Shown here piece by piece: positions 14,184 to 50,938 of a stretch of DNA of 64,000 nucleotides; position 1 is the first letter of the stretch; each line of letters begins with the position of its first letter. Below the pieces are notes generated by a model. It was not told where the DNA came from. It was given only the letters and a program-made list of their open reading frames with translations, and did no database searches. The DNA comes from an uncultured Gemmatimonadales bacterium (GTDB lineage: Bacteria; Gemmatimonadota; Gemmatimonadetes; Gemmatimonadales; GWC2-71-9), in assembly GCA_963795085.1 (NCBI GenBank), contig CAWCFX010000004.1:448001-512000 (forward strand), written 5' to 3'. The position numbers and the translations under genes were made by a program.

Positions 14184-14252
14184 ATGGCCAAGCTGCTGAC
14201 TAATACATACGTACCGGTCCAGGGCAGACCCCCGCTGCCGGGTCAATCTTGA
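14184..14252 (+). other. Putative leader ORF (22 aa) whose TGA overlaps the TTG start of K1
   Basis: MAKLLTNTYVPVQGRPPLPGQS*, TTGA overlap at 14249-14252. Confidence 0.35.
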
Positions 14253-16870
14253 GCCTGCCCGCCGGCCTCGTGACCGCCCTGGCCGACCGCTACCGCCTCG
14301 AGCGGGAGCTGGGGCAGGGCGGCATGGCCACCGTATACCTCGCCGAGGACCTTCGGCACGACCGCAAGGTCGCGGTCAAGGTGCTGCGGCCGGACATTTC
14401 CGCCATCCTGGGCGGCGAGCGGTTCCTCGCCGAGATCAAGACCACGGCCAACCTGCAGCACCCGCACATCCTTCCGCTCCACGACTCGGGCGAGGCGGCG
14501 GGCATGGTGTACTACGTCATGCCCTATGTCCAGGGGGAAAGCCTGCGGGACCGTCTCGTCCGGGACCACCAGCTGCCGGTGGACGAGGCGGTCCGGATCG
14601 GCCGGGAGATCGCCGACGCGCTGCAGTACGCCCACGAGCACGGCATTGTCCACCGGGACATCAAGCCGGAGAACATCCTGCTCCACGGCGGCCACGCGAT
14701 GGTGGCCGATTTCGGGATTGCGCTGGCCGCCAGCCGGAGCGACGGCGCGAGCCGGATGACCGAGACCGGCATGTCGCTGGGCACGCCCCACTACATGGCG
14801 CCCGAGCAGGCCATGGGTGAGCGCGAGATCACGCCGCGCTGCGACGTGTATGCCCTGGGCTGCGTGGTCTACGAGATGCTGGCCGGCGAGCCGCCTTTCA
14901 CCGGGCCCACCGCGCAGGCGATCATCGCCCGGGTGATGACCGAAGAGCCGCGGAGCCTGGCGATCCAGCGGCGGTCGGTGCCGGAGTACGTCGAGGCCGC
15001 GGTCAATCATGCGCTGGAGAAGCTGCCCGCCGACCGGTTTCCCACCGCCCGGGCCTTCGGCGAGGCGCTGGCCGGCCCGGTCACTGCCGCCGCAGGCTGG
15101 TCCCGCTCCTCCACCGCTGCCCGCCGGGTCGATCGGTCGTCTCCCTTGCGCCGGGGTCTTCCTTATCTATTAACCGCGCTGGGACTGCTGGCGGGTGTCC
15201 TGATCGGCAGTCGGCTGGGGGAGAAGGCGGCGCCGCCCCGACCGCTCCGGCTGGTGGTGCCCATCCCCGCCGAGACTCCGCCGGTGGCCATCCGGCTCTC
15301 GCCGGATGGAAGCACCCTCGCGTACATCAGCGGCCAGGGCGGGCGGCTGGCGATTTACGTCCGCCGGCTGGACGAGCTGGCGGCTCGCCGCCTCGAGGGA
15401 ACCGAGGACGCGTTCACCCTCAGCTTCTCCCCCGACGGGGAATACATCGCCTTCATGGTGGGAACCACCGCCCGGCGAGTACCCGTGCGCGGCGGAGCGG
15501 CGGTGGGGATCCCGGTGCAGACCGCGGCGGGGACCGTCACCGCCGCCCTGGAGTACGCCGGTCCCGACCGGTTCGTCATGAGCACGCAGGACGGCCTGGT
15601 CAGGGTGGGGCCGAACGGCGAGCTGGAGCTGTTCGCCCGGCAGGATTCCGCGGCCGGCGAGTCCGCCCTCTCCCTCAACCAGGTCCTGCCCGATGGGTGG
15701 GTGCTGGGGCGGAGCTGGACTGAGCCGCCCTACGGACCAATCCTCGCCTTCGATCCGGCCTCCGGAAAGCGGATCGTGATCGCCCCGGTCGTCGCGTCGT
15801 GGGCCGGATATGCCGACGGAGTCCTCGCCTGGACCCTGGCCGACGGGGCGCTCTATGCGGCGCCGTTCGATCTCGAGAACAAGCGGCTCGCCGGCCCTGC
15901 CCGCCCGGTCGGAGCCACGGTGCTCTCCGTACTCGGGTTCGTCCCACCGGTAACGATCGCGCCCGGCGGCCTGGCCTACGTTCCGACCCGCCCGCGATCC
16001 CTGGTGAAGATCTCCCGGGGTGGAGAGGTGACCCCCCTGCTCGAATCCGACCGGACCTACCACGACCCCCGGGTGTCCCCTGACGGGCGGCGAATCGCGC
16101 TGGACCTGACCGACCAGGAGCGCGATATCTGGCTCCTCGACATCGCCGATGCCACGCTGACCCGGTTCGGCTTCGATTCCGTGGCGCACGATGCCGAGTG
16201 GATGCCCGATGGACGGGGCCTCCTGTTCGCGGCCATCCGGGGCGGGAAGATCGGGGTCTTTCGGCGGCGGTTCGATTCGGGCGGCGCGGCGGACTCGGTC
16301 TTCGTCGGCCCCCAGCAGGTGACCATCCATACCTTGACTGCCGACGGCCGCACCGGCATCGGCGTCTCGCTCGATGCCGGGAGTTTCGACATCGTGTCCA
16401 TGGATCTCGCCGGGAACGACCCGACCCCTCGGCCCATCCTCCAGTCCCGGTACTCCGAGGGCTGGCCCGCGCTCTCGCCGGACGGCCGGTGGCTGGCGTA
16501 CCAGTCGGACGAGTCGGGACGGCAGGAGGTGTATATCCGGTCCTGGCCGGGCCTGGGGAACAAGGTCCAGGTGTCCCAGGGGGGCAGCGAGCCGGCCTGG
16601 TCGCCCGATGGGCGGGAACTGTTCTACCGGTCGGTGGGTGAGGGCCAGGAGTGGCTGGTCGCCGCCACGCTGGAGTGGGGCGACGTGCCGCGGGTCCGCT
16701 CCCGGGCCCGGCTCTTCGGCGTCGATAACATCGAGTTCGCCACCCCCCACCGGAATTACGACGTTTTTCCCGACGGCCGCTCCTTCGTGATGGTGCGCCA
16801 GGGGCAGCCGGACCAGCGGGCGGAGGTGGTGTACCTGCAAAATCTCCACCAGCTCGCCGGCACGCGATGA
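14249..16870 (+). CDS. K1: Ser/Thr protein kinase + TM + TolB/PD40-like beta-propeller
   Basis: ELGQGGMATVY, VAVK, HRDIKPEN, DFG, APE. Hydrophobic segment LPYLLTALGLLAGVLIG, followed by SPDG-type repeats. Confidence 0.93.
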   Translation: MSLPAGLVTALADRYRLERELGQGGMATVYLAEDLRHDRKVAVKVLRPDISAILGGERFLAEIKTTANLQHPHILPLHDSGEAAGMVYYVMPYVQGESLRDRLVRDHQLPVDEAVRIGREIADALQYAHEHGIVHRDIKPENILLHGGHAMVADFGIALAASRSDGASRMTETGMSLGTPHYMAPEQAMGEREITPRCDVYALGCVVYEMLAGEPPFTGPTAQAIIARVMTEEPRSLAIQRRSVPEYVEAAVNHALEKLPADRFPTARAFGEALAGPVTAAAGWSRSSTAARRVDRSSPLRRGLPYLLTALGLLAGVLIGSRLGEKAAPPRPLRLVVPIPAETPPVAIRLSPDGSTLAYISGQGGRLAIYVRRLDELAARRLEGTEDAFTLSFSPDGEYIAFMVGTTARRVPVRGGAAVGIPVQTAAGTVTAALEYAGPDRFVMSTQDGLVRVGPNGELELFARQDSAAGESALSLNQVLPDGWVLGRSWTEPPYGPILAFDPASGKRIVIAPVVASWAGYADGVLAWTLADGALYAAPFDLENKRLAGPARPVGATVLSVLGFVPPVTIAPGGLAYVPTRPRSLVKISRGGEVTPLLESDRTYHDPRVSPDGRRIALDLTDQERDIWLLDIADATLTRFGFDSVAHDAEWMPDGRGLLFAAIRGGKIGVFRRRFDSGGAADSVFVGPQQVTIHTLTADGRTGIGVSLDAGSFDIVSMDLAGNDPTPRPILQSRYSEGWPALSPDGRWLAYQSDESGRQEVYIRSWPGLGNKVQVSQGGSEPAWSPDGRELFYRSVGEGQEWLVAATLEWGDVPRVRSRARLFGVDNIEFATPHRNYDVFPDGRSFVMVRQGQPDQRAEVVYLQNLHQLAGTR

Positions 16871-16920
16871 CGTCCCGCCGCGGCACCGATAAGCTCCCCT
16901 CTCGACCGCGACTGGCATGA
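16867..16920 (+). other. Putative relay ORF (17 aa) with ATGA overlaps at both ends
   Basis: MTSRRGTDKLPSRPRLA*. Its ATG overlaps the K1 stop and its TGA overlaps ATG 16917. Confidence 0.4.
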
Positions 16921-17141
16921 CGGTGGACGGGTCGCTCGCCGCCGCCTTGGCCGACCGCTACCGCATCGAGCGGGCCGCGACTCACGTCGCTGCTCGGCAC
17001 GCCATCGCTTCGCGATTCCGCCTGTTCGAGAATCCTTCGGGCGGGAATTTCCGAAATAGATGGACTCACCAAGTGAAGTCGCTCCGCGACGTTGTGCCGA
17101 GCAGCGACGTAAATCGTGATTGCGGCGAGGTGGATGAATGA
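16917..17141 (+). CDS. False-start mini-ORF 1 (74 aa): kinase N-terminus followed by hairpin-encoded sequence
   Basis: MTVDGSLAAALADRYRIER|AATHVAARHAIASR...VPSSD. Its stop overlaps the K2 ATG. Homologous to 32166-32390 and 35029-35244. Confidence 0.5.
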   Translation: MTVDGSLAAALADRYRIERAATHVAARHAIASRFRLFENPSGGNFRNRWTHQVKSLRDVVPSSDVNRDCGEVDE

Positions 17142-17195
17142 CCACCGCGGAGCGCCTTGCCCAGGCCCTGGCCGACCGCTACCGCATCGAGCGGG
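16944..17195. repeat. Hairpin element copy 1 with flanking direct repeats
   Basis: Perfect 17 bp inverted repeat ACGTCGCTGCTCGGCAC (16984-17000) / GTGCCGAGCAGCGACGT (17094-17110). The 31 bp direct repeats at 16944-16974 and 17165-17195 are 30/31 identical, 221 bp apart. Confidence 0.85.
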
Positions 17196-19456
17196 AGCTG
17201 GGCGCCGGCGGCATGGCTACCGTGTACCTGGCCCACGACCTCCGCCACGACCGAAAGGTCGCCATCAAGGTCCTCCGGCCCGAGCTGGCCGCCGTGATCG
17301 GGGCGGAGCGGTTTCTCGCCGAGATCAGGGTGACGGCCAACCTGCAGCATCCCAACCTGCTGCCGCTCTTCGACTCGGGCGCGGCCGGGAGCTTTCTCTA
17401 TTATGTAATGCCCTTTGTCGAGGGCGAAACGCTGCGCCACCGGCTGGAGCGGGAGCGGCAGCTCCCGGTGGAGGAAGTCGTTCGCATCGTGACGCTGCTG
17501 TCGGGGGCGCTGGACTATGCCCACGCGCACGGAGTCATCCACCGTGACTTGAAACCGGAGAACATCCTGCTCCAGGCCGGCCAGCCGGTGATCGCCGATT
17601 TCGGCATCGCGCTGGCCGTGGCCCAGGCCGGCGGCGCTCGGGTCACCGAGACCGGTCTCTCCCTCGGCACCCCGCACTACATGAGCCCGGAACAGGCGGC
17701 GGGGGAACGGGAGATCACGGCGCACTCGGACCAGTACTCATTGGCGGCGGTGACGTACGAGCTGCTGAGCGGCGAGCCCCCGCACACCGGGCCCACGGCG
17801 CAGGTTATCGTGGCCCGCCTGATGACGGAGCGACCGCGCCGTCTCCGGGCGACCCGCTCGGCGGTGCCGCCGAGCGTTGATGCCGCGGTCGCTCGGGCGC
17901 TGAACAAGACGCCGGCGGATCGCTTCCCGTCCTGCGGCGCCTTTGCCCAGGCCATGGTGGCCCGGGCAACCCGGCGCCGGGTGGCCGGGTTCCTGGCTGC
18001 CGCCGCGCTCGCCGGGCTGGCGCTGACCGCTGCAGCCCTGTTTCTCCGGGGCCGTGAGCCGGCGGCGAGCGGCGGCGCGACACAATCGCTCGCCGTCCTT
18101 CCGTTGACCAACCTGAGCGGCGACCCGGCGGACGATTACTTCGGGATCGGCCTCGCGGAAGAGATGACCCGTGCCATCGCCCAGACTGGTGTCCGGGTGA
18201 TCGGGCGGGTCAGTGCAGGGGCGCTGCAGGCCCGGGGTCTCGACGAGCGCGCAATCGCGGAGGAACTGGGGGTCACCTCCCTCCTCACCGGTACGGTCCA
18301 GCGCTCCTCCGGCCAGGTGCGGATCAGCGTCACCCTGGTGTCGGCCAGTGATGGCGCTGTCCGCTGGAGCGAGCGGTACGACCGGCCCGTGGCCAACGTG
18401 TTCGCCGTGCAGGACGAGATCGCCGGCACCGTGGCCTCAACCCTGCTCGGCTCACTGAACCGCCGGGCCACCCCGGCTCGCCAGGCGGAGACGACCGACC
18501 CCGAGGCCCACGCCCTTTTCCTCCAGGGGCAGGTGCTCTTCAACCGGCGGGGCGCGGCCAACCTGCGCCAGGCGATCGTCCTCTTCGAGCGCGCCGCGGC
18601 GCGCGATCCAGGCTATGCCCGGGCCCAGGCGTCGCTGGCGATGGCGCAAGCCGTCCTCCCGGCCTACGTGGTGGACAGCACCCCGGAGATTCTCGCCAGC
18701 GCGGTCGCGGCGGCCGAGCGGGCCATCGCCATGGACTCGACCATCCCCGAGTCGTATACCGCGCTGGGCTACGGGTATTCGCTGCTGGGACAATTGCGCC
18801 GGGCCGAGCTCAACTTCCGTCGTTCGCTGGCGCTCGATTCAACCGTATCCACGACTTGGGGATGGTATTCGCTGCTCTCCAGCCGGCTGGGCGAGTTCCG
18901 GGAGGCCCAGGCCCAGGTGGCGCGGGGGCGCGAGCTGGAGCCGGCCTCCATGATCGCCCGGATCTGGGAAGCCCAGATCCTCCATGCCGAGGGCCGGTTT
19001 GCCGAGGCCGATTCGCTGGCCAGCGCCACCATGGCCATGGACTCGACGTTCCTGCTGGCCTGGACCTGGCGGGCCAACGCCCTGATGGCCATGGGGCAGA
19101 CGGCGCTCGCCGTGTCGCTGCTGGAGCGCCAGGTGGCGAAGCTGCCGCCCGTGGGTCGGCCCGAGCAGGCGCATGGCCAGCTCGCCTATGCCTACGCCAT
19201 CGCCGGCAGAATCCCCGAGGCGCGCGCGATGCTCCGGACGATCCGGGCGAGAAACGGCGGCGACCTTCCCGCCTTCGGTGCCGTGGCCGCGACGCTGGAA
19301 GAGCTGGGCGACCACGAGGAGGCCGTGGAGGTCCTGGGCCGGGCGATCAGCCGGAGCGACACCTGGACCGTCCAGTTCCCCCGGGTGGCGCAATATGCCC
19401 GGCTGCGGCGGGACCCGCGCGCGGCGGCCATGCTCGACCGACTGGCGGTGCGGTAA
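17138..19456 (+). CDS. K2: Ser/Thr kinase + TM + TolB-N-like domain + TPR
   Basis: HRDLKPEN, DFG. TM VAGFLAAAALAGLALTAAALFL. SLAVLPLTNLSGDPADDYFGIGLAEE, then helical TPR-like repeats. Confidence 0.92.
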   Translation: MTTAERLAQALADRYRIERELGAGGMATVYLAHDLRHDRKVAIKVLRPELAAVIGAERFLAEIRVTANLQHPNLLPLFDSGAAGSFLYYVMPFVEGETLRHRLERERQLPVEEVVRIVTLLSGALDYAHAHGVIHRDLKPENILLQAGQPVIADFGIALAVAQAGGARVTETGLSLGTPHYMSPEQAAGEREITAHSDQYSLAAVTYELLSGEPPHTGPTAQVIVARLMTERPRRLRATRSAVPPSVDAAVARALNKTPADRFPSCGAFAQAMVARATRRRVAGFLAAAALAGLALTAAALFLRGREPAASGGATQSLAVLPLTNLSGDPADDYFGIGLAEEMTRAIAQTGVRVIGRVSAGALQARGLDERAIAEELGVTSLLTGTVQRSSGQVRISVTLVSASDGAVRWSERYDRPVANVFAVQDEIAGTVASTLLGSLNRRATPARQAETTDPEAHALFLQGQVLFNRRGAANLRQAIVLFERAAARDPGYARAQASLAMAQAVLPAYVVDSTPEILASAVAAAERAIAMDSTIPESYTALGYGYSLLGQLRRAELNFRRSLALDSTVSTTWGWYSLLSSRLGEFREAQAQVARGRELEPASMIARIWEAQILHAEGRFAEADSLASATMAMDSTFLLAWTWRANALMAMGQTALAVSLLERQVAKLPPVGRPEQAHGQLAYAYAIAGRIPEARAMLRTIRARNGGDLPAFGAVAATLEELGDHEEAVEVLGRAISRSDTWTVQFPRVAQYARLRRDPRAAAMLDRLAVR

Positions 19457-19457
19457 G

Positions 19458-22061
19458 ATGAGCGATCCGATGTCCCGCCTCGCGACCGGCCTGGCCGACC
19501 GTTACCGCGTCGAGCGGGAGTTGGGGCAGGGCGGCATGGCCACCGTGTATCTCGCTGAAGATCTGAAGCACCGTCGCAACGTCGCGATCAAGGTGCTGCA
19601 TCCCGATCTGGGCGCGGCACTCGGCGCGGAGCGCTTTCTCTCGGAGATCAGCACCACGGCTCGCCTGCAGCACCCGCACATCCTCCCACTGCTCGATAGC
19701 GGCGAGGCCGACGGCCTTCTCTACTATGTGATGCCGCTCGTCACCGGGGAGACCTTGCGCTCGCGGCTCGAGCGGGAACGGCAGCTGCCGGTCCAGGATG
19801 CAGTTCGCATCGCCCGCGAGGTGGCCGATGCCCTCGGCTGCGCTCACGCCCAGGGCGTCATCCATCGCGATATCAAGCCGGAGAACATCCTGCTCCAGGG
19901 GGGCCACGCGCTGGTCGCGGATTTCGGAATTGCCCTCGCCGTTCAGGAGGCGGGCGGGCAGCGACTGACGCAGACGGGACTCTCGCTCGGCACGCCGCAG
20001 TACATGTCACCCGAACAGGCGATGGGCGAGAAGCAGGTTGACCGGCGCAGTGATATCTACGCGCTCGGCGCTGTGACGTACGAGATGCTCATCGGGGAAG
20101 CGCCGTTCACCGGACCAACGGTGCAGTCTATTGTGGCCCGGATCATGACCGAAGAACCCCGTCACCTGGGAGTACAGAGAAAGGCAGTGCCTGGGCCGGT
20201 CGAGCATGCGGTGCTGCGCGCTCTCGAGAAGCTGCCCGCCGACCGGTGGGCGAGCGCGGAAGCCTTTGCCGCGGCACTCGAGGAGCAGCCTGGCCCGGCG
20301 CCGCGCGCGTCCGCTCCCCGGGCCATTGCGCCGGCACCACGGGTCCGCCTGGTGATCGGGGTGGCCATCCTCGCGCTCGGTCTGCTTGCCGCCGCATGGT
20401 ACGTAAGCCGGGCACCGGGCAACCCATCGGCTAAGCCCCGCATCGTGGTGTTACCGGCCGTGAATCTGGCCGGCGCGGAGCAGGCCTACCTCGCCGATGG
20501 TATCGCGGAGGAGATCAACAACCGGCTGGTGGGATTGACCGGGGTCGAAGTCATTGGCCGCACCAGTGCCGAGCGATACCGGGGCACTCAGCTCACGCCG
20601 CGCCAGATCGGCGCCGAGCTCGACGCCAACTTCATCCTGGCGCTGCGCATCGGCATGGAGGGCCCGGCGGACGGCCAACGCATCAGGGTGAGTGCCGAGC
20701 TCCTCAATGCGGCAAACGAGACCCAGGTATGGGGGAAGACGTACCAGGCTCGGGCCACCGCGGACAACTTCGCGATGCAGGGTGAGATCGCCACCCAGGT
20801 GGCGGAGGAAATGGGTGTGACCCTGATCTCCGGAGACAGCGCCCGAGTCGCGGAGCGTCCCACCGAGAACCAGGAAGCCTATGACGACTACCTCAGGGCC
20901 ACTGGAATTCTCCGCGAGAAGAGCTCGATCACCCAGTTCTTCGATGCCGCCCGGTACCTGCAGCGCGCGGTGGACCGGGATCCCGGGTTCGCCCAGGCGT
21001 GGGCGGCCCTGGGATACGCGCACGCTGAGATCTACTGGTTCTGGGGCGACCACTCGGCGGCTCGCCAGGAGTTGGCCCGGGCTGCCGGCGAGCGTGCTCG
21101 CGCGCTGGCGCCGAATGCCGCCGAAACCCACTTCGCCCTCGGCGTGATCGCCTACCATGGACACCTCGATTTTCCCCGTGCCCTCGAGCATCTCAACGCC
21201 GCGATCGCCGCCAAGCCGGGCCAGGCCCGCTTCCTGGAGTTCGTCGCCTACGTCCAGCGGCGTTCAGGCGACCTGGAAGCGGCGCTGGCAAACGCCCGGC
21301 GGGCGCTCGCGCTTGATCCCCGGAACGTACGGATCCTGGGTGACGCCATGGGCCAGACGCTGGTGTACCTGGGACACTCAGCCGAAGCGCTGAGGTCTGC
21401 CGCCCGGGCGACCGATCTCGATCCCGAGGACTGGCAACCGCACCATACCCTGATGCTGGCACACACGCAGATGGGAGATCTCGCCGGGGCAGAGGCCGCC
21501 GCCCGGGCCACCATGGTACGGCCGGGAGTGCAGGGCTTCCTGGTGGACCGGCCGAGGGACCTGGCCTGGGTCATAGGACGCCTTCCGCTGGAAGAGCAAG
21601 TCACCCTCGCGCACACCTATCCTCCTCTCAGTCCCGAGATATCTGACACGGCGATGTATTTCCTGGTACACGCGGAGATCCTGAGCAGCGCGGGACTCGA
21701 CGGCCGAGTGAAATATGAACGTGCAGCCGAGCATATCGAGCGGCTCATTGCCAGCCAGCCGAATGAAGGTTGGTACTACGACCGCCTGGGCACGGCCTAC
21801 CGGGGACTGGGGCGAGTGGATGAGGCCATTCGCGCGGGACGCCGGGCGGTCGAGCTGCTGGCACCGCTCGACCGATTTGAAGGACCCGAGGTCTCCCTCA
21901 ACCTCGCCCAGAGTTACCTGGCTGCCGGGGACCAGGGGCAGGCCGCTGCACTGGCGCGGGCGTTCATCCGGTCTTTGCCGGGCAACCGGCTCCTTCTCAA
22001 GCACGATCCTCAATACGCCGCCTTACGCGATCTGCCCCAGGTGAGGGAGCTGCTGCGATGA
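19458..22061 (+). CDS. K3: Ser/Thr kinase + TM + TolB-N-like domain + TPR
   Basis: Start reassigned to ATG 19458 (MSDPMSRLATGLADRY), 1 nt after the K2 TAA. HRDIKPEN, DFG. TM LVIGVAILALGLLAAAWYV. IVVLPAVNLAG...YLADGIAEEI, then TPRs. Confidence 0.92.
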   Translation: MSDPMSRLATGLADRYRVERELGQGGMATVYLAEDLKHRRNVAIKVLHPDLGAALGAERFLSEISTTARLQHPHILPLLDSGEADGLLYYVMPLVTGETLRSRLERERQLPVQDAVRIAREVADALGCAHAQGVIHRDIKPENILLQGGHALVADFGIALAVQEAGGQRLTQTGLSLGTPQYMSPEQAMGEKQVDRRSDIYALGAVTYEMLIGEAPFTGPTVQSIVARIMTEEPRHLGVQRKAVPGPVEHAVLRALEKLPADRWASAEAFAAALEEQPGPAPRASAPRAIAPAPRVRLVIGVAILALGLLAAAWYVSRAPGNPSAKPRIVVLPAVNLAGAEQAYLADGIAEEINNRLVGLTGVEVIGRTSAERYRGTQLTPRQIGAELDANFILALRIGMEGPADGQRIRVSAELLNAANETQVWGKTYQARATADNFAMQGEIATQVAEEMGVTLISGDSARVAERPTENQEAYDDYLRATGILREKSSITQFFDAARYLQRAVDRDPGFAQAWAALGYAHAEIYWFWGDHSAARQELARAAGERARALAPNAAETHFALGVIAYHGHLDFPRALEHLNAAIAAKPGQARFLEFVAYVQRRSGDLEAALANARRALALDPRNVRILGDAMGQTLVYLGHSAEALRSAARATDLDPEDWQPHHTLMLAHTQMGDLAGAEAAARATMVRPGVQGFLVDRPRDLAWVIGRLPLEEQVTLAHTYPPLSPEISDTAMYFLVHAEILSSAGLDGRVKYERAAEHIERLIASQPNEGWYYDRLGTAYRGLGRVDEAIRAGRRAVELLAPLDRFEGPEVSLNLAQSYLAAGDQGQAAALARAFIRSLPGNRLLLKHDPQYAALRDLPQVRELLR

Positions 22062-26781: not shown

Positions 26782-26785
<4 letters not shown>
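26747..26785 (+). other. Putative relay ORF (12 aa) between vapC and K5
   Basis: MTILRRISPEAP*, ATGA overlaps at both ends. Confidence 0.4.

Positions 26786-29391
<2,606 letters not shown>

Positions 29392-29484: not shown

Positions 29485-29488
<4 letters not shown>
29450..29488 (+). other. Putative leader ORF (12 aa; extendable to GTG 29402) overlapping the K6 start
   Basis: MRSMVDRPGLTQ*, TGA overlaps ATG 29485. Confidence 0.3.
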
Positions 29489-32165
<2,677 letters not shown>

Positions 32166-35028: not shown

Positions 35029-35029
<1 letters not shown>

Positions 35030-37079: not shown

Positions 37080-37133
37080 ATGACTCACACCGAGAATCGT
37101 CACCGTCCCACGGACGCGAAGGAAAAGCCATGA
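37080..37133 (+). other. Putative relay ORF (17 aa) between K8 and K9
   Basis: MTHTENRHRPTDAKEKP*. Its ATG is 6 nt after the K8 stop and its TGA overlaps the K9 ATG. Confidence 0.4.
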
Positions 37134-43241: not shown

Positions 43242-43331
43242 GAGTTCTCCGGCCAGAGTAAGGGGAGGACTGCTACTCCCAAGGTAAGGTTCGCCGTCGC
43301 TCTGCGCATCTCGCACCTCTAAGGAGACCGG

Positions 43332-43364
43332 ATGTCCCCCGATCTTTTGCCGGACCAGCCATGA
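43332..43364 (+). other. Putative leader ORF (10 aa) with strong SD, overlapping the K11 start
   Basis: AAGGAG (43321-43326), 5 nt, ATG. MSPDLLPDQP*, TGA overlaps ATG 43361. Confidence 0.5.
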
Positions 43365-45970
43365 CCACGGCGCTTGCCCAGGCGCTGGGCGACCGCTACC
43401 GGCTGGAGCGGAAGGTGGGCGAGGGCGGCATGGCCACGGTCTATCTCGCCCAGGACCTCAGGCACGACCGCCGGGTCGCCATCAAGGTGCTGCGTCCCGA
43501 GCTGGCCGCCGTCATCGGCGCGCAGCGGTTCCTCTCCGAAATCAAGACGACCGCGAACCTGCAGCACCCCCACATCCTGGCGCTGCACGATTCCGGAGAA
43601 GCCAGCGGCACGGTGTTCTATGTCATGCCGTACGTCCAGGGCGAATCGCTGCGCGACCGGCTGTCGCGGGAGCACCAGCTGCCCGTGGATGAGGCCGTCC
43701 GCATCGCGCGGGAAGTCGCCGACGCGCTGGACTACGCCCACCGGCATGGGGTGATCCACCGCGACATCAAACCCGAAAACGTCCTGCTCCACGATGGCCG
43801 GGTGCAGGTGGCGGATTTCGGAATTGCGCTGGCGGTGAGCCGCTCCGACGGCGGCTCCCGGATGACCGAGACCGGCATGAGCCTCGGTACGCCGCACTAC
43901 ATGGCGCCGGAGCAGGCCATGGGCGAGCGCGACATAACGCCCAAGGCCGATATCTATGCGCTCGGCTGCATGACCTACGAGATGCTGTGCGGCGAGCCGC
44001 CGTTCACCGGCCCCACGGCCCAGGCCATCATCGCCCGGATGATGACCGAAGAACCGCGCCCGCTCACCATACAGCGCAAGTCGATTCCGCCCCACGTGGA
44101 AGCCGCGGTCCGCACGGCACTGGAGAAGCTGCCGGCCGACCGGATGTCATCGGCCGCCGAGTTCGGCGCGGCGTTGGTGAATCCGGGGTATGTCACCCGG
44201 TCCGGCACCGGGGCCCGCAATGCCGTGACGATCCATGGCCGCGCCCGCGCCGGCCGGCCCTCCGTGATCGCGGTCGTTGCAGCCGTACTGCTGGGCGTGG
44301 GGGGGCTGATCGCCGGGCGCTGGCTGGGGCAGCCTCATCCCGGCCCGCTTCCCGAAGTCCGGTTCACCCTGGCACTTCCCGACACGGCGCGCTACGTGGA
44401 CACCTTCGGCCGCTCCGTGGCGGTCTCTCCGGACGGTCGTCTCCTGGTGTACACCGGCGGAACCGAGGGCCTGCACCGGCTCTTTGCCCGCCGGCTGGAC
44501 GAGCAGGTGCCGGCCGCGCTCGCCGGGACCGAGGGCGGATACATGCCGTTCTTCTCTCCTGATGGCGAGTGGGTCGGCTTCGTCGCCAACCAGCGGCTGA
44601 TGAAGGTTCGCCTCTCGGGCGGCGTCCCGGTGGTGGTGGCGCAGCTGCTGGGCAACGTCGTCGCGGGAGCGACCTGGGGCATCCACGACGATATTGTCCT
44701 GGAGGATGTCTCGGGGCTGGTCCGGGTCAAGGCGGCCGGCGGCCGGCTCGACATGCTGGTTCCCATCGATTCGCAGAACCTGCTCATCGAATGGCCCAGC
44801 TTCCTGCCCGATGGCGAGGCCATCCTGTGTGCCGTCAGCGGAACCGATACCAGGACGCGAATCGGCGTGATCACCGTGGCCGACGGCAAGGTCTCGGTCT
44901 TCGAGGATATCACGGGGAGCGATCCCCGCTTTGTCGCTCCGGGAACGGTGATGTGGTTGTCGCCCGAGGGCGTGATGCTGGCGGCGGCGTTCGACCCGAA
45001 ACGCCGCACCTTCAGCGGCCCGCCATCGCCGGTCATGGAGAACGTGGTCGAAGACTTCCGGGGCGCCAAGGTCGCCCTGGGACCCGGGATCGCCGTGCGG
45101 GTCGAGGGCACGTCGCAGCGGGCCCAGATGCTCCGCTTCGGGCGGGACGGCACCGGGCGCCGCAACGAGATGCGGGGCGCACAGAACTACACGACGCCGC
45201 GCTTCTCGCCCGATGGCCGCCGGGTCGCGTTCGTGAGCAACTTCCTCGGGGGCGAGCTCTGGGTGGCCGACCGGTCCCGGGGCACCCTGCAGCGCCTGGC
45301 GCTCGCCGGGCAGGCGATCGGGCCTGAATGGTCGCGCGATGGACGGCGCCTCGTGTTCGGATATATGACGCGCGCGAGCTCCAGCTGGGATATTCACGCG
45401 ATGTCCGCCGATGGATCGGGCTCGGCGGAACCGCTCATCCAGACGCCGGAGACCGAGTTCCCGGCTGGCTGGGGCGCGGACGGGAGCCTCGCGTTCTGGC
45501 GATCCACCCTGAACCGCGGGGACATTCTCTACCGCGACAGCGGGGGAACGGAGCATCCCTTTGCCAACTCGCCCGCGGATGAACGATCCCCGGTGCTCTC
45601 GCCCGACGGCCGCTGGCTGGCCTATGTCTCGGATGAGTCGGGCCGGCGCGAGGTGTACGTCCGCCCGTTCCCGGCCGGTCCGGGGCGGTGGCAGGTTTCC
45701 AGCGAGGGCGGCATCGAGCCACGCTGGTCCAGGGGCGGGCGGGAAATCATCTATCGCGACCGCGGCTGGCTCCTCGCGGTCTCGCTGACCCCTGGTCCGG
45801 ACCTGGTGGTCGGGCGGGTCGACTCGCTCTTTCGCGGCGCCTTCGCGATCAGCGGAGTCCGGGCCCAGTATGACGTGAGCGGCGATGGCGCGGAGTTCCT
45901 GATGGTGGGGGTGCCGCCGGAATCGCGTACCCTCAGCGTCACGCTCAATCCGGGGGGCCTGCCGCGATGA
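43361..45970 (+). CDS. K11: Ser/Thr kinase + TM + TolB/PD40-like propeller
   Basis: Intact kinase motifs, most similar to K1. TM VIAVVAAVLLGVGGLIA. SPDG repeats. Confidence 0.93.
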   Translation: MTTALAQALGDRYRLERKVGEGGMATVYLAQDLRHDRRVAIKVLRPELAAVIGAQRFLSEIKTTANLQHPHILALHDSGEASGTVFYVMPYVQGESLRDRLSREHQLPVDEAVRIAREVADALDYAHRHGVIHRDIKPENVLLHDGRVQVADFGIALAVSRSDGGSRMTETGMSLGTPHYMAPEQAMGERDITPKADIYALGCMTYEMLCGEPPFTGPTAQAIIARMMTEEPRPLTIQRKSIPPHVEAAVRTALEKLPADRMSSAAEFGAALVNPGYVTRSGTGARNAVTIHGRARAGRPSVIAVVAAVLLGVGGLIAGRWLGQPHPGPLPEVRFTLALPDTARYVDTFGRSVAVSPDGRLLVYTGGTEGLHRLFARRLDEQVPAALAGTEGGYMPFFSPDGEWVGFVANQRLMKVRLSGGVPVVVAQLLGNVVAGATWGIHDDIVLEDVSGLVRVKAAGGRLDMLVPIDSQNLLIEWPSFLPDGEAILCAVSGTDTRTRIGVITVADGKVSVFEDITGSDPRFVAPGTVMWLSPEGVMLAAAFDPKRRTFSGPPSPVMENVVEDFRGAKVALGPGIAVRVEGTSQRAQMLRFGRDGTGRRNEMRGAQNYTTPRFSPDGRRVAFVSNFLGGELWVADRSRGTLQRLALAGQAIGPEWSRDGRRLVFGYMTRASSSWDIHAMSADGSGSAEPLIQTPETEFPAGWGADGSLAFWRSTLNRGDILYRDSGGTEHPFANSPADERSPVLSPDGRWLAYVSDESGRREVYVRPFPAGPGRWQVSSEGGIEPRWSRGGREIIYRDRGWLLAVSLTPGPDLVVGRVDSLFRGAFAISGVRAQYDVSGDGAEFLMVGVPPESRTLSVTLNPGGLPR

Positions 45971-46011
45971 CCCGGCGCATCGTGCCCCCGGGCCTCGGAA
46001 CCGGGCGATGA
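45967..46011 (+). other. Putative relay ORF (14 aa) between K11 and K12
   Basis: MTRRIVPPGLGTGR*, ATGA overlaps at both ends. Confidence 0.4.
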
Positions 46012-48269
46012 CGGCGCCCATGGAGGGGCTCGCCGCCGCGCTCGCCGACCGCTACCGGCTGGAGCGGGAGGTGGGCAAGGGCGGCATGGCCACGGTCTAT
46101 CTCGCCCAGGACCTCAAGCATCACCGCCGGGTCGCCATCAAGGTGCTCCATCCTCAGCTGGCCGCGTCGGTCGGGGGCGACCGGTTTCTCGCCGAGATCC
46201 GCACCACGGCAAACCTGCAGCACCCGCATATCCTCCCCCTGTTCGACAGCGGGCGCGTCACCCTGGCAGCGCCTCCCCACGGGGCGGAGGGCGAAATACT
46301 GTACTACGTCATGCCCTTCATCGAGGGCGAATCGCTCCGGGACCGGCTCACCCGGGAGAAACAGCTCCCCCTCGAGGACTCCCTGCAGATCATGCGGGAG
46401 GTTGCCGATGCGCTCGACTACGCCCACCGGGCCGGGGTAGTGCATCGCGACATCAAGCCGGAGAACATCATGCTGAGCGGCGGGCATGCCATCGTCGCCG
46501 ATTTCGGCATCGCCCGCGCCGTCGGCGACGAGCACTCGACCCGGCTGACCCAGACCGGCGCGGTGGTCGGCACCCCCGCCTACCTGAGCCCCGAGCAGGT
46601 CACCGGCGAGCCGCTCGACGGCCGGAGCGACCTCTACAGCCTCGGCTGCGTGCTCTATGAATGCCTGACCGGCGAGATTCCCTTTGCCGGCCCGGCGATG
46701 TCCACCATGGCGCAGCGGGTGGTGGCACCACCCCCATCGGTCAGGGCCAGGCGGACCGAGACGCCGTCCCAGGTCGACCAGCTGGTGGCGCGGGCAATGG
46801 CCACCCAGGCGACCGATCGCTTTTCCACCGGCCGCGAGATGGTCGCCGCACTCGTCGCCCCCCGGCGGGAAAGCCGGCGCGATGGCCGCCAGGCCATGGT
46901 CGTCCTGCCTTTCGCCAACCAGAGCCCCGACCCGGAGAACGAGTACTTCAGCGACGGCCTGACCGAAGAGATCATCAGCGCGCTCTCCGGCATCAAGTCG
47001 CTCTCCGTGATTTCCCGGACATCGGCGATGCAGCTGAAAGGGACCACCAGGGATGTCCGGACCATCGGGCGTGACCTGGGCGTGCAGTACGTGCTCGAAG
47101 GCAGCGTCCGCAAGGCGGGGAACTCGCTCCGGATCACGACCCGGCTGATCGACGCCGCGAGCGATGCGCAACTCTGGGGGGACAAGTACGGCGGGACCAT
47201 GGACGACGTGTTCGAAGTCCAGGAGCGGGTGGCCCGGGAGATCGTCAAGGCGCTCGGCATATCGCTGACCAGCGACGAAGACCAGCGCCTGGCCCGCCGG
47301 GCGATCGAGCATCCCCAGGCGTTCGAGTGGTATCTCCAGGCCCGCGTCGAGTTCCGCCGCTACGGCTCGTCCATCGACCACGGCATGGCGCTGCTCGACC
47401 GGGCCATTGCCATCGAGGGCCAGACTCCACCGCTCCGCGCGCTGGCCGCCTGGGCCCAGGTGTCCCTGGTCCGTTCCGGGCACGCCGCAGGCCGCGGCGG
47501 GCTGGATGAAGCCGAAGCGGTCGCCCGTGCCCTGATCGAGGAAGCTCCCGAGGCTCCCTATGGCCATGCCCTGCTGGGGTTCATTGCCTATGAGCGAAGC
47601 CGGGCAGCGGATGCGGTGCGGCACCTCCTGGCGGCGCTCGAGCGCGAGCCCAACGACGCCGACAACATGTTCTACCTGGTCGTGTCTTACATCGCCGCGG
47701 GGCAGGAGTTCCGGGCCGTAGATGCGGCGGCACGCCTGATGGCGAGCGACCCGCTGTCGCCCCTGGCCTGGATGACGGCCGGGATCGCGCCCTGGTTTAC
47801 CGGGCAGGTCGGAGACGCCTTGGCCAGCCTGGTCCGGGCGGTAGAGCTGGATGAGAAGAACCTCCTGGCCCTCTGGAGCCTGGGCTACGCCTATGCGCTG
47901 GATGGGCAAATGACCGAAAGCGCGAAGGTGGCGGAAACCCTGCGGCTGAAGGACCCCGATTTCACCTATACCCGCCACCTCCTCGCCCTGGTGGCCGCAG
48001 TGGACGGCCGGAGGGACGATGCGCTCCGGCAACTGGACGGGGTGGAGGGTCTCGACGCGCATCATCACCTGCACCTGGCCGAAGCGTTTGCCATGGCCGG
48101 CGAGACCGACCGCGCCCTGTCGCTCCTCGAGGAAGCGGTCCACCAGGGGTTCCATCCTTACAATTTTATTGTCGACTACTGTCCGTTCCTGGCCCCGCTC
48201 CGGGAGACCCCGCGGTTCGCGGTGGTCGCGGCCCTGGCCCGGAAACGCTCCGACGAGTTTCACCCATGA
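46008..48269 (+). CDS. K12: Ser/Thr kinase + TolB-N-like domain + TPR, no TM
   Basis: HRDIKPEN, DFGIAR. N-lobe insertion RVTLAAPPHGAEGEI. MVVLPFANQSPDPENEYFSDGLTEEII directly follows the kinase, then TPRs. Confidence 0.92.
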   Translation: MTAPMEGLAAALADRYRLEREVGKGGMATVYLAQDLKHHRRVAIKVLHPQLAASVGGDRFLAEIRTTANLQHPHILPLFDSGRVTLAAPPHGAEGEILYYVMPFIEGESLRDRLTREKQLPLEDSLQIMREVADALDYAHRAGVVHRDIKPENIMLSGGHAIVADFGIARAVGDEHSTRLTQTGAVVGTPAYLSPEQVTGEPLDGRSDLYSLGCVLYECLTGEIPFAGPAMSTMAQRVVAPPPSVRARRTETPSQVDQLVARAMATQATDRFSTGREMVAALVAPRRESRRDGRQAMVVLPFANQSPDPENEYFSDGLTEEIISALSGIKSLSVISRTSAMQLKGTTRDVRTIGRDLGVQYVLEGSVRKAGNSLRITTRLIDAASDAQLWGDKYGGTMDDVFEVQERVAREIVKALGISLTSDEDQRLARRAIEHPQAFEWYLQARVEFRRYGSSIDHGMALLDRAIAIEGQTPPLRALAAWAQVSLVRSGHAAGRGGLDEAEAVARALIEEAPEAPYGHALLGFIAYERSRAADAVRHLLAALEREPNDADNMFYLVVSYIAAGQEFRAVDAAARLMASDPLSPLAWMTAGIAPWFTGQVGDALASLVRAVELDEKNLLALWSLGYAYALDGQMTESAKVAETLRLKDPDFTYTRHLLALVAAVDGRRDDALRQLDGVEGLDAHHHLHLAEAFAMAGETDRALSLLEEAVHQGFHPYNFIVDYCPFLAPLRETPRFAVVAALARKRSDEFHP

Positions 48270-50938
48270 GCGGCCCGGCCCCGCGACTCGCTGCGGCTCT
48301 CGCTGACCGCTATCGCCTCGAGCGGGAGCTGGGCCAGGGCGGCATGGCCACCGTGTACCTCGCCGAAGACCTGAAACACCGCCGCTGGGTCGCCATCAAG
48401 GTGCTCCGCCCCGAGCTGGCCGCGGTGATCGGCGCCGAGCGGTTCCTCCGTGAGATCCACACCATCGCCGCGCTCCAGCATCCCCACATCCTCGGCCTGA
48501 TTGACAGCGGAGAAGTGCAGGGGACCGCGTATTACGTCATGCCGTTCGTCGAGGGAGAATCGCTGCGCGACCGGCTGGCCCGGGAAAAGCAGCTGGCCGT
48601 GGGCGAGGCAGTGCGGATCGGGACCGAAGTGGCTGCTGCGCTGGACTATGCCCACCGCCACGGTGTGATCCATCGCGACATCAAGCCGGAGAACATCCTG
48701 CTGCACGATGGCTCGGCGCTGGTCGCCGATTTCGGGATTGCGCTGGCCGTGTCCACCGCCGGCGGCAGCCGGATGACCGAAACCGGCATGTCGCTCGGGA
48801 CCCCCCATTACATGAGCCCGGAGCAGGCGATGGGCGAGCGGGAGATCACCGGCCGCTCCGATGTCTATGCTCTGGGGGTGGTGGTGTACGAGATGCTGGC
48901 GGGGGAGCCGCCGTTCACCGGCCCCACGGCCCAGTCGATCGTCGCCAAGGTGCTCACCGAGGAGCCGCGTTCCCTGGCCGCCCGGCGGCACACCGTGTCA
49001 CTCACCGTAGAATCCGCGGTCATGACCGCGCTGGAGAAGCTTCCCGCCGACCGCTTTGCCAGCCCCGCGCAGTTCGCCGATGCCTTGAATGGACGGACGG
49101 AGCTCTCCGGTACGCACCGGCGGGCCGGTTCGCCGGTGCGCGGACCGGCGGCCGGGAAGCGGCTGGGATTGCTTCTCGCGATCGTCATCGCGGCAATATC
49201 GGTGGGACTGGCCGCGTGGAGTTGGTTCGGGGTAAGCCGCCGGCCGGACCAGCCGTCGCGCCAGTTCGTCTCCATGGGCCGGGACCTCCCGGTTTCGACC
49301 ACGGTGCCATCCCTGGCGCTCTCCCCGGACGGGATGATCCTCGCGTTTGTCACCCAGAATGCCGGCCGGCCGATCTACCTCAAGCACCGGGACCAGCTCG
49401 AGCCCCTTCCCCTAACCGGCACGGAAGGGGGAAACAACCCGGTGTTCTCGCCCGACGGCCAGTGGATCGCTTTCGTGGTCCAGGGCCAGCTCAAGAAGAT
49501 CCGGGTGAGCGGGGGTGCTATCGCCACGATTGCCGACTCCGTGGGCCAGACCCTGGGGTCCTTCGGGGGAGCCACCTGGCTGGACGACAACACGCTGGTC
49601 TATACCACCACGAACCTGCTGGCCCTGAAGCAGGTGAGCGCCGATGGTGGCGAAGCGACTCTGGTGCTCCCCGACACCCTGCTCCAGGGGCGGGGCAGTG
49701 GAAACCCGGTTGCGATGCCCGGATCCCGGGGCGTTCTCTTCAAGAGCTGTATCTCCGGCTGCAACGTGATGGCCATTCATGCGTTGGATCTTGAGACCGG
49801 CGCGGTGAAAGTCCTGGTCAACGATGCCGCCCTGGCCTGGTATCTCGGCGAGGACCGGTTGCTCTACGTGCGAAGGGATGGCGTGGGCCTGGTCGCTCCG
49901 TTCGATCCGGACCGGCTGGAGCTCACCGGCCCGGGTGTGCCGATCCTCGATGGCGTGCTGGTGAACAACGGGTATCCCCACCTGACCTGGTCCCGTTCCG
50001 GGACCCTGGCCTATCTCGCGGGGACGGGGAACGCCGCCGAGACCGAGGTGGTCCGGGTGAATCGGGGCGGGACAGCGACGCCGATCGACTCCACCTGGTA
50101 CGGCGCGTTCAACTCGCTCGCCGTTTCGCCCGACGGCCGCCGGGTGGTGGTAGGCGCGGGGGCCACCGCGGGCGGTCTGAATGTCTGGATCAAGGAACTC
50201 GACCGGGGGCCCTTTACCCGCCTCACCTTCAACGGAGCGGACCGCCGCCCGGCCTGGTCGCCCGATGGCCGCACGGTTGCCTTTCTCCGGGACTCGGCGG
50301 CCCTGGGGTGGGTCGTGGGCCGTGCCAGCGATGGCAGCGGCGCGGATATCACGCTGGGTCTGACCAGCCGGATTCTCCAGGAGGTTGACTGGTCCTCTGA
50401 TGGCCGCTGGATCGTGGCCCGGACCGACAACGGCACGGCGGGAAATGGCGACATCATCGGAATCCGGGTGGGGAAGGACACCGTCGAGGCTCCCCTGGCG
50501 GCCACCCCGTTCACCGAGCTGCACCCGGCGCTCTCTCCCGACAGCCGCTGGCTGGCCTATACCTCTAATGAGTCGGGGTTGAACGAAGTCTATGTACGCC
50601 CATTCCCCAACACTGCCGGCGGCCGGTGGCAGATCTCCCGCGGTGGCGGGGCGCAGCCCCGGTGGTCCCGTGACGGGCGTGAACTGTTTTTCCTGCGGGA
50701 CACCGACCTGATGGCCGCGCGCGTCAGCGCCCGGACGGGCTTTGAGGTGGAAAGCGTGGAGCGTCTGTTCAGCGTGCGGGACTTCCGGCAGGACCAATTT
50801 CACCAGACCTACGACGTGTCGCCCGATGGGCGCTTCCTGTTCATGGTCGGCCGCCGGGCACTGGTTGAGGCGGGTCCGCCCCGGATTGCCTGGGTCGAGG
50901 GCTGGCTCGACGACCTGGACGCCAGGCTCAAGCGGTAA
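48266..50938 (+). CDS. K13: Ser/Thr kinase + TM + TolB/PD40-like propeller
   Basis: Intact kinase motifs. TM LGLLLAIVIAAISVGLAAWSWF. SPDG repeats. ATGA overlap with K12. Confidence 0.93.
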   Translation: MSGPAPRLAAALADRYRLERELGQGGMATVYLAEDLKHRRWVAIKVLRPELAAVIGAERFLREIHTIAALQHPHILGLIDSGEVQGTAYYVMPFVEGESLRDRLAREKQLAVGEAVRIGTEVAAALDYAHRHGVIHRDIKPENILLHDGSALVADFGIALAVSTAGGSRMTETGMSLGTPHYMSPEQAMGEREITGRSDVYALGVVVYEMLAGEPPFTGPTAQSIVAKVLTEEPRSLAARRHTVSLTVESAVMTALEKLPADRFASPAQFADALNGRTELSGTHRRAGSPVRGPAAGKRLGLLLAIVIAAISVGLAAWSWFGVSRRPDQPSRQFVSMGRDLPVSTTVPSLALSPDGMILAFVTQNAGRPIYLKHRDQLEPLPLTGTEGGNNPVFSPDGQWIAFVVQGQLKKIRVSGGAIATIADSVGQTLGSFGGATWLDDNTLVYTTTNLLALKQVSADGGEATLVLPDTLLQGRGSGNPVAMPGSRGVLFKSCISGCNVMAIHALDLETGAVKVLVNDAALAWYLGEDRLLYVRRDGVGLVAPFDPDRLELTGPGVPILDGVLVNNGYPHLTWSRSGTLAYLAGTGNAAETEVVRVNRGGTATPIDSTWYGAFNSLAVSPDGRRVVVGAGATAGGLNVWIKELDRGPFTRLTFNGADRRPAWSPDGRTVAFLRDSAALGWVVGRASDGSGADITLGLTSRILQEVDWSSDGRWIVARTDNGTAGNGDIIGIRVGKDTVEAPLAATPFTELHPALSPDSRWLAYTSNESGLNEVYVRPFPNTAGGRWQISRGGGAQPRWSRDGRELFFLRDTDLMAARVSARTGFEVESVERLFSVRDFRQDQFHQTYDVSPDGRFLFMVGRRALVEAGPPRIAWVEGWLDDLDARLKR

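Follow-up and report, generated by a model that had tools for sequence, protein, structure and literature searches.

What does a bacterium gain by lining up thirteen closely related kinase domains and joining them to different sensors: a diversifying receptor repertoire, or an ordinary set of receptors that expanded in place? This question is raised by a 64,000-nucleotide stretch of DNA (here, the window) from an uncultured Gemmatimonadales bacterium (GenBank assembly GCA_963795085.1, contig CAWCFX010000004.1, positions 448,001 to 512,000). Positions 14249-50938 of the window hold 13 co-oriented Hanks-type Ser/Thr kinase open reading frames (ORFs) of 610 to 906 codons, all on the plus strand and named K01 to K13. 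A preliminary description of the window had likened this layout to polymorphic receptor repertoires such as plant receptor-kinase clusters and had proposed a diversifying surveillance or immune-like system. Our analysis makes it likely that the locus is instead an old kinase island, an ordinary receptor-kinase expansion of conserved sensor types and not an immune-like one.

The host, a member of the abundant, mostly uncultured soil bacteria of the order Gemmatimonadales, is represented by a soil metagenome-assembled genome (MAG) of 3.89 Mb in 6 contigs (93% complete). The window sits on a 777-kb contig of this assembly and has a G+C content of 0.64 to 0.71. The genome contains 53 full Pkinase matches and 42 HisKA matches; Hanks-type kinase matches thus exceed HisKA (histidine-kinase) matches here, and a quarter of them stand in one locus.

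Thirteen intact kinases with different sensor halves

Pkinase (PF00069) was found in 13 of 14 submitted ORFs at 150 to 184 bits (cut-off, 31.7; E values, 4e-54 to 1e-43), the 14th ORF being an SBP56-like propeller protein and not a kinase. The starts of K03 and K07 were set downstream of the longest-ORF start, at the ATG before the conserved N terminus. All 13 kinases keep G-x-GGMATVY, VA(I/V)K, the alphaC Glu, HRD(I/L)KPEN, DFG, a T-E/Q-T activation loop, and (S/A)PE, and none looks like a pseudokinase from its sequence, in agreement with the preliminary description. The 5' part of the kinase is repeated as 13 DNA copies with 61 to 94% identity over 300 nucleotides (nt), far above chance.

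After the kinase, a single hydrophobic helix (residues 281 to 324; 19-residue Kyte-Doolittle mean, 1.73 to 2.58) is present in 11 of the 13 proteins, and no transmembrane helix was found in K08 and K12 (hydropathy maxima, 1.15 and 1.04). PD40 repeats occur in nine proteins (K01, K04, K05, K06, K07, K09, K10, K11, and K13; weakest in K10, E 3.5e-7) and TPRs in three (K02, K03, and K12). A FlgO/TolB_N-like domain precedes the TPRs, with a direct profile match in K02 and K12. The Pfam scan of the K03 segment after the transmembrane helix gave no match; its TolB_N-like domain was recognized by BLASTP (36% identity over 129 residues to the K02 domain, E 2e-15). The architectures are therefore nine with a transmembrane helix and a PD40 propeller, two with a transmembrane helix, a TolB_N/FlgO-like domain and TPRs, one soluble TolB_N-like protein with TPRs, and one soluble alpha/beta-hydrolase-like protein, so that the earlier counts stand throughout by profile matches, hydropathy, and BLASTP. 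The earlier statement that no phosphatase or FHA gene lies in the window also holds: the genome has three PP2C matches and seven FHA matches (the latter in four open frames), all outside it.

The kinases with a transmembrane helix and a predicted PD40 double propeller are K01 (14249..16870; TTG start; helix at residues 303-321; Pkinase 3.3e-50, PD40 9e-28), K04 (22058..24772), K05 (26782..29391; a propeller of a separate sensor class), K06 (29485..32169), K07 (32387..35029), K09 (37130..39850), K10 (39847..42501; second propeller TolB-like), K11 (43361..45970), and K13 (48266..50938). TPR proteins are K02 (17138..19456; helix at residues 285-303; Pkinase 9.6e-44, TPR families, FlgO 6.7e-4 and 3.2e-5), K03 (19458..22061), and the soluble K12 (46008..48269). 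K08 (35241..37073) is a soluble kinase whose alpha/beta-hydrolase-like domain is divergent and has kept Ser and His. The K12 kinase is divergent and carries an insert of about 10 to 13 residues after a conserved DSG (VTLAAPPHGAEGE).

The sensors are old and conserved

For 10 of the 13 sensors, orthologues with 48 to 83% identity exist in other genomes. The survey covered 143 loci (1.55 Mb) from other genomes and metagenomes, with a threshold of at least 48% identity, and full-length sensor orthologues were found in 3 loci for K01, 1 each for K02, K04/K09, and K07, 9 for K10, 2 each for K11 and K12, and 12 for K13.

The K10 sensor has the longest branch of the array sensor tree and no counterpart in a congener (see below). 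Nevertheless, 408 relatives of it were collected, and 119 listed clusters besides the window's own show 50 to 83% identity across the entire sensor. In the 14 orthologues closest to K10, identity is 87 to 95% in the kinase, 70 to 82% in the sensor, and 27 to 67% in the linker and transmembrane segment. Because the kinases of these orthologues are 87 to 95% identical to that of K10, compared with 51 to 87% between K10 and other array members, this pattern argues for some private function of the K10-type kinase. A metagenome scan with the K10 sensor as query yielded no relative; with an alignment as query, the scan chose kinase motifs and retrieved nothing closer than 65%.

Whole-domain dN/dS (the ratio of nonsynonymous to synonymous divergence, Nei-Gojobori) is below 1 for the sensors in five of five pairs, with values that are rough because synonymous sites are near saturation; for the K13 sensor and its congener orthologue, dN is 0.35 and dS is 1.19. 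No reverse transcriptase (RVT_1, of the type found in diversity-generating retroelements) was matched in the 93%-complete genome. These comparisons suggest that the sensors are old conserved families and not a hypervariable or positively selected repertoire, and the proposal of a diversifying surveillance system was not borne out.

K12 shows a pattern of its own in comparison with its congener orthologue: the kinase dN (0.37) is higher than the sensor dN (0.28), the reverse of what other genes show.

The array has been rearranged, and its kinase halves occasionally converted

For comparison with a close relative, we used the best same-genus genome (G004, 94% complete), which has 68 Pkinase matches; 40 kinase ORFs, from 26 stretches on 24 contigs, were compared. 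The flanking orthologues are only 64 to 74% identical there, and the multicopper oxidase that precedes K01 is also followed by kinases. At least 19 kinases are spread over at least three contigs at this locus; contigs C72, C37, and C117 end in kinase matches, and two of the locus's contigs break inside kinase domains. Among the ORFs compared, clear sensor orthologues in the congener exist only for K12 (63%) and K13 (57%), i.e., for 2 of the 13. Ten other sensors have best matches of 27 to 38%, not above their home paralogues, and the C-terminal domain of K08 has no match among the 40 kinase ORFs compared. Fragments of the same linkage recur elsewhere: K13 followed by a beta-lactamase-type gene (L067); K10, K11, and an oxidase (L099); K10, an SBP56-like gene, and a K04/K09-type gene (L040); and K10 followed by K13 (L037 and L080). 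The array is an old island that was repeatedly rearranged, expanded, and pruned.

Kinase domains of array members are 51 to 94% identical to each other, and sensors of the same class are 23 to 36% identical, with the exception of K04 and K09 (63%). A tree of the genome's 53 kinase domains places ten array members in a single well-supported clade (Shimodaira-Hasegawa-like approximate likelihood ratio test, SH-aLRT, 98) with K03 as its sister (94); K12 stands apart, and K05 is paired with a dispersed paralogue (99). Local duplication thus accounts for most of the array. K02 (TPR) and K08 (hydrolase) are nested among the propeller-type kinases, indicating that the sensor half was replaced at least twice.

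According to the preliminary description, relatives carrying the same 13 genes in the same order with congruent kinase and sensor trees would mark a static old expansion. The congener differs from this picture and the trees are not congruent, so that the array is not static, yet the sensor families are old and conserved. The two trees conflict. In the approximately unbiased (AU) test, the kinase tree rejected the groups K04+K09 (p 0.019), K06+K13+orthologue (p 6e-5), and K01+orthologue (p 2.5e-5), and the sensor tree rejected K06+K07 (p 0.013) and K09+K10 (p 9e-5).

The conflict is explained by gene conversion between neighbors that is confined to the kinase half and visible in the DNA. In the pairs K06/K07 and K09/K10, third-codon-position identity is 87 to 93% in kinase patches and 30 to 50% (saturated) past about residue 265. 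A Sawyer-type permutation test covering 78 gene pairs detected runs of 48 and 54 identical variable sites (global P <= 0.001), while the remaining 76 pairs were not globally significant. For the same two pairs, kinase dS is 0.42 and 0.68, compared with sensor dS of 1.13 and 1.73; kinase dS across the array is 0.46 to 1.54, mostly 0.7 to 1.5. Gene conversion between neighbors is therefore occasional, kinase-confined, not recent, and not pervasive. A recent whole-gene duplication as the origin of K06 and K07 (kinases, 94% identical) was considered and rejected, because their sensors are only 31% identical and dS is saturated.

In base composition, a local dip to a G+C content of 0.647 occurs at 36-40 kb of the window (0.67 to 0.71 elsewhere). 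G+C at third codon positions (GC3) is 0.75 in K09 and 0.80 in K03 and K08, compared with 0.83 to 0.89 in the remaining ten kinases, and these three may be members of different history.

Kinase rows are common in the host family

In 20 relatives, 14 to 74 Pkinase matches were found per genome. In a phylum sample of 60 well-assembled genomes, in which the counts are first-look kinase candidates, we found 16 to 117 candidates in 30 genomes of the host family, 14 to 39 in the 10 genomes taken from another family of the order, 0 to 4 in the remaining families of the class with one exception out of four (57), and 1 to 7 in other classes. An unpublished genome (G068) among the 30 of the host family has 28 candidates, within the range, and none of our conclusions rests on it. 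Of 26 loci of at least 19 kb centered on a related kinase, 11 have at least 3 kinases, with a maximum of 8 in 20 kb. Larger rows were seen on contig 3 of G056 (13 plus-strand matches within 38 kb) and contig 3 of G039 (25 plus-strand matches and 1 minus-strand match within 98 kb), and rows of 5 to 25 kinases occur across the host family. As rows of similar size are common in the family, the 13-gene array is typical and not exceptional. It belongs to an order-wide expansion of the Hanks-type kinase family.

Among named records, nearly every relative of the K08 kinase comes from a MAG labeled Gemmatimonadales, Gemmatimonadota, or Gemmatimonadaceae. Two contigs of 2.9 and 2.7 kb (L035 and L047), from MAGs labeled Ilumatobacteraceae and Vicinamibacteria, encode kinases 74 to 75% identical to K08; they resemble the Gemmatimonadales matches and are probably mis-binned fragments.

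Relation to known kinases and propellers

The individual architectures are known, and the array consists of expanded bacterial receptor Ser/Thr kinases. What is available of two domain surveys bears out the earlier statement that kinase-PD40 and kinase-TPR fusions are individually known: TPR, PASTA, WD40, GAF, PD40, and APH are given as the commonest kinase-tethered domains in prokaryotes (PMC2877116), and kinase-TPR architectures are described from many bacteria (PMC1262709). The same portions of these surveys mention neither Gemmatimonadota nor arrays of this size. In full texts of the literature, supplements aside, we found no account of Gemmatimonadota kinase arrays or of tandem arrays of 13 to 25 genes, nor of translational chaining or kinase-half conversion in such arrays.

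The closest familiar design is that of PknD of Mycobacterium tuberculosis, with an N-terminal cytoplasmic Hanks kinase, one transmembrane helix, and a C-terminal extracytoplasmic propeller; 11 of the 13 array genes are receptor-like in this sense. The PknD sensor is one six-bladed NHL propeller. The array differs in that its propeller sensors are predicted to be tandem double propellers of the PD40/TolB type, that nine such genes stand together, and that they belong to a diderm Gemmatimonadales host. The PknD equivalog model (NCBIfam PRK13184) gave 148 to 166 bits in the five kinases scanned, against a cut-off of 839, which places them outside the equivalog. M. tuberculosis itself has nine putative transmembrane receptor kinases, with a beta-propeller among their sensor domains, according to the part of PMC1847690 used here, which cites Good et al. 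2004 for the PknD propeller.

TolB is the second point of comparison. The second propeller of K10 superposes on it, PD40 repeats are shared, and a TolB_N/FlgO-like domain is present in K02, K03, and K12. In the array, however, a kinase and a membrane anchor are attached to the propeller, another propeller comes before it, and the TolB_N-like domain and the propellers are in separate genes. The TolB equivalog TIGR02800 scored 100.7 bits (cut-off, 343) and PRK01029 47 bits (cut-off, 405) with K01, both far from membership.

How the island may work

Eleven members are bitopic receptors with a cytoplasmic kinase, one helix, and a periplasmic sensor. Nine of the sensors are predicted to be tandem double beta-propellers with a TolB-like second propeller, and two to consist of a TolB_N/FlgO-like domain and TPRs. 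The two other members are cytoplasmic, one with a TolB_N-like domain and TPRs and the other with an alpha/beta-hydrolase-like domain bearing Ser and His. Binding of a ligand outside the cell would bring about kinase dimerization and autophosphorylation of the T-x-T activation loop, after which the kinase could phosphorylate cytoplasmic targets, e.g., FHA proteins encoded elsewhere, and the three PP2C phosphatases of the genome would reset the signal. The array itself changes by duplication (K04/K09), loss, rearrangement, and replacement of sensor halves.

Every sensor type forms an ancient family of paralogues that has orthologues in other Gemmatimonadales, and each therefore most likely recognizes its own conserved ligand, derived from the envelope or the environment. 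The TolB-like propellers, the TolB_N/FlgO-like domains, and two propeller lipoproteins in and next to the array (see below) point to envelope or exopolymer cues. The appearance of a constant kinase with a variable sensor is then explained by stronger purifying selection on the kinase half, together with occasional conversion of that half. The array offers about ten distinct periplasmic sensor types, widely shared, whose ligands can be searched for individually, and it is a clean natural case of gene conversion limited to one domain in tandem paralogues of bacteria. It opens no new class of immune or diversity-generating system.

Several observations weigh against this reading and keep our confidence in it short of firm. 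(i) With 40 of 68 matches compared in a genome that is 94% complete, some of the orthologues missing in the congener may simply be unsampled. (ii) K03, K05, and K06 have no sensor orthologue of at least 48% identity among the 143 loci, and some sensors could be lineage-restricted. (iii) The dN/dS values are whole-domain and not site-wise, with a proportion of synonymous differences (pS) of 0.52 to 0.68, near saturation, and a GC3 of 0.75 to 0.89. (iv) The AU test did not reject K13+orthologue on the kinase tree (p 0.22) or K01+K11 on the sensor tree (p 0.07), and the groups tested were named after the tree of the other domain had been seen. (v) The kinase domains match the PADLOC PD-T4-6 models at about 1e-90, which leaves some room for a role in defense. 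(vi) The signaling mechanism is drawn by analogy to PknB/PknD-type receptor kinases.

Alternative explanations

The alternative that survives best is that the array is a set of recombination cassettes, in which the kinase 5' halves serve as homology arms for sensor swaps within and between arrays and the hairpin relics described below are footprints of such swaps. In its favor, the conversion tracts stop at the boundary between kinase and linker, and it would also accommodate the nesting of K02 and K08, with their TPR and hydrolase halves, in the propeller-type kinase clade, a class-A sensor joined to a core-clade kinase in the congener, and the three kinase N-terminal relics (13 to 20 codons) that stand beside a hairpin with arms of about 40 bp. 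Globally significant tracts, however, are limited to 2 of 78 pairs, and a kinase dS of mostly 0.7 to 1.5 makes exchange rare and old. Moreover, the K10 orthologues keep paralogue-specific kinases, which argues against freely interchangeable kinases, and a search of 95 other loci did not turn up the hairpin core. We regard cassettes as an unlikely account of the array as a whole. A broader version is about equally doubtful in our view: kinase islands would be a modular receptor-assembly system in which the kinase halves, made similar by local conversion, act as recombination handles for the exchange and re-sorting of sensor halves (double propellers, TolB_N-TPR, and hydrolase-like) over 5 to 25 chained genes, and the upstream-ORF/hairpin elements would be junction scars or regulators of sensor exchange. 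If true, this would be a bacterial counterpart of plant receptor-kinase cluster evolution, serving environmental or envelope sensing and not immunity.

An immune-like, diversifying repertoire, comparable to plant receptor-kinase or NLR clusters, in which many fast-evolving receptors would sense phages, competitors, or molecules of foreign origin and signal through a common kinase output, appears improbable. It would fit the birth and death of members, seen in the different number and content of the congener array and in the in-array duplicate sensors of K04 and K09, as well as the uncoupled histories of kinases and sensors. A toxin-antitoxin (TA) pair lies inside the array, one distant homologue joins the K08-type hydrolase domain to TIR, and the kinase domains match anti-phage kinase models of PADLOC, namely, PD-T4-6 (E values down to 1e-94), the MADS kinase MAD6 (between about 1e-62 and 1e-75), and the BREX kinase PglW (1e-26 to 1e-33, listed for 2 of the 13). 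These matches, for which PADLOC gives no cut-off, are confined to the generic kinase domain (residues ~5 to 347 at most), scores with the NCBIfam models are far under the cut-offs (MAD6, 151 to 179 bits versus 460; PglW, 66 to 88 versus 990), and no BREX or MADS partner gene, methyltransferase included, was seen among the window ORFs scanned. The sensors are orthologue families conserved at 48 to 83% across genomes, whole-domain dN/dS is below 1, the 93%-complete genome has no reverse-transcriptase match, and arrays of this kind are a constant trait of an entire bacterial family. What remains of the likeness to a polymorphic repertoire is a tandem array with gain, loss, and module exchange; hypervariable sensors and diversifying machinery were not found in the whole-domain and genome-wide comparisons.

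An assembly artefact, i.e., a collapse or mis-join across repeated kinase domains, is the least credible alternative by far: contigs of short-read relatives do break inside kinase domains (C72, C37, and C117 of the congener), but the window lies within a 777-kb contig of a 6-contig assembly, the copies are only 61 to 94% identical over 300 nt with longest exact shared runs of about 57 to 69 nt, each of the genes has an unbroken ORF and a sensor of its own, other near-complete genomes have arrays that are as large or larger, and short exact pieces from three soil DNA runs (which contain 6 to 10% of the sampled words and gave assembled pieces of 33 to 583 nt) match gene-specific parts and one intergenic/K08 junction.

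Folds of the K10 and K08 sensors

The K10 sensor was chosen for modeling because it has the weakest PD40 signal, and it is the sole sensor modeled. From an alignment of 66 sequences, an all-beta model with about 50 strands was obtained (predicted local distance difference test, pLDDT, 92.2; predicted template modeling score, pTM, 0.89). The top Foldseek matches are proteins with two tandem propellers (probability 1.0; TM-score, 0.28 to 0.34), the low TM-scores being due to a different inter-domain angle. In a structural search against representative structures, residues 270 to 536 of the sensor superpose on Escherichia coli TolB (1c5k_A) with a Z score of 24.7 and a root mean square deviation of 2.5 A over 237 residues. 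Further TolB structures are matched at Z 24.1 (2ojh_A) and 22.7 (7mx5_B), and YWTD and NHL propellers follow below TolB at Z 19 to 20 (NHL, 19.1). The model thus depicts the K10 sensor as a double propeller whose second half is TolB-like. PF26549 is listed for K10-type sensors in precomputed annotation.

The C-terminal 320 residues of K08 (window 36111-37070) have no direct Pfam match, and a single-sequence AlphaFold model of this part was unusable (pLDDT 38.6); its assignment was therefore made via homologues. We collected 230 representative relatives, and one homologue is 59% identical. Among 36 relatives scanned, 19 match Abhydrolase_1, _2, _3, or _6, and the family profile reaches haloalkane dehalogenases at 1e-7. 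A nucleophile elbow with G125 and S127 (G-x-S-x-G/A) and H295 are invariant in 44 aligned sequences, including K08. The same 36 relatives comprise 17 kinase fusions or fragments, 2 fusions to an OmpR-type DNA-binding domain, and 1 TIR fusion. Its retained Ser and His and its repeated pairing with DNA-binding and TIR outputs fit a cytoplasmic small-molecule sensor or enzyme. These fusions also suggest a reusable sensor or enzyme module that forms a sizeable family without annotation. The domain was also noted in proteins P0027, P0033, and P0146.

Gene chaining and the upstream-ORF/hairpin element

All 13 kinase genes start with ATGA. Stop and start codons overlap by 4 nt between K03 and K04, K04 and the SBP56-like gene, K09 and K10, and K12 and K13, and mini upstream ORFs end in the kinase ATGA of K09 (37080-37133), K11 (43332-43364), and K12 (45967-46011), the last of which also begins on the K11 stop. 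This arrangement of overlaps and short upstream ORFs suggests that translation may be chained or coupled along the array.

Upstream of three kinases, the upstream ORF is part of a longer element. The first copy (16917..17141, plus strand) has a 74-codon ORF that begins with ATG and a kinase-like N terminus, contains a long hairpin, and stops in the K02 ATGA. The second (32166..32390, plus strand), also of 74 codons and with a hairpin, has its ATG right after the K06 stop and stops in the K07 ATGA. A third copy (35030..35244, plus strand) stops in the K08 ATGA. The element is about 200 nt long and opens with a relic kinase N terminus (..LAAALADRYRIER) of 13 to 20 codons, after which its ORF (74 to 82 codons) crosses an inverted repeat whose arms measure about 40 bp and whose consensus fold is -79.5 kcal/mol. 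Between the K07 and K08 copies, identity is 92% over 188 nt, which exceeds that of the adjoining coding DNA. At 0 to 1 mismatch, the core of the element occurs genome-wide at the three array sites only, apart from a single arm at another place on the contig. A search of 95 other loci did not find it, and an Rfam search of 14000-52000 (E <= 0.1) returned no family. Origin from a genome-wide repeat or a miniature inverted-repeat transposable element was rejected because of this confinement to the array. The element may be a translation coupler or a recombination scar.

Non-kinase genes in and around the array

The preliminary description had overlooked these three elements as well as an SBP56-like gene, a TA pair, a dioxygenase-like gene, and a BNR-type gene. 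The SBP56-like gene (24769..25968, plus strand; SBP56 2.5e-9) overlaps the K04 stop by 4 nt and encodes a beta-propeller lipoprotein with an LLTGC lipobox; its orthologues (68 to 74%) are located inside kinase arrays of other genomes. A BNR/Ycf48-like lipoprotein gene (50971..51867, plus strand) lies 32 nt past K13 and has a 65% homologue inside the congener array. Together, orthologues of these two propeller-type lipoproteins (65 to 74%) were seen in kinase arrays of G004, L030, and L040. It is possible that the two array-linked proteins are co-receptors or ligands.

An 813-nt gap between the SBP56-like gene and K05 is filled by a VapBC-like TA pair, whereas the matching gap in the congener is only 93 nt. 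The pair consists of a small Phd/YefM-like antitoxin gene (26065-26334, plus strand; PhdYeFM, 28.8 bits, just below the cut-off of 29.8) followed by a PIN/VapC toxin gene (26331-26750, plus strand; PIN, 42.6 bits, cut-off 23.6), the two overlapping by 4 nt. In promoter and terminator scans, the window as a whole did no better than shuffled controls (first half, 2 versus 1.3 and 7 versus 5.5; second half, 1 versus 1.9 and 5 versus 7.3); its best sigma-70-like site (11 of 12 matches) is at 26030-26058, before the antitoxin gene. A Dioxygenase_C-like gene (42507..43316, minus strand; Dioxygenase_C 1.2e-10) interrupts the array between K10 and K11, with all NCBIfam matches below their cut-offs.

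The genes that flank or interrupt the array thus comprise a glucan synthase, multicopper oxidases, GltS, the SBP56-like, dioxygenase-like, and BNR proteins, a beta-lactamase-type hydrolase, SdpI, and peptidases. The first of these is a frame of more than 2523 codons (window 2-7570, minus strand) that runs off the window and has GH94 supersandwich, glucoamylase, and glycosyltransferase-2 domains; by its domain content, it appears to encode a cyclic beta-1,2-glucan synthase-like enzyme, just upstream of the oxidase, GltS, and kinase region.

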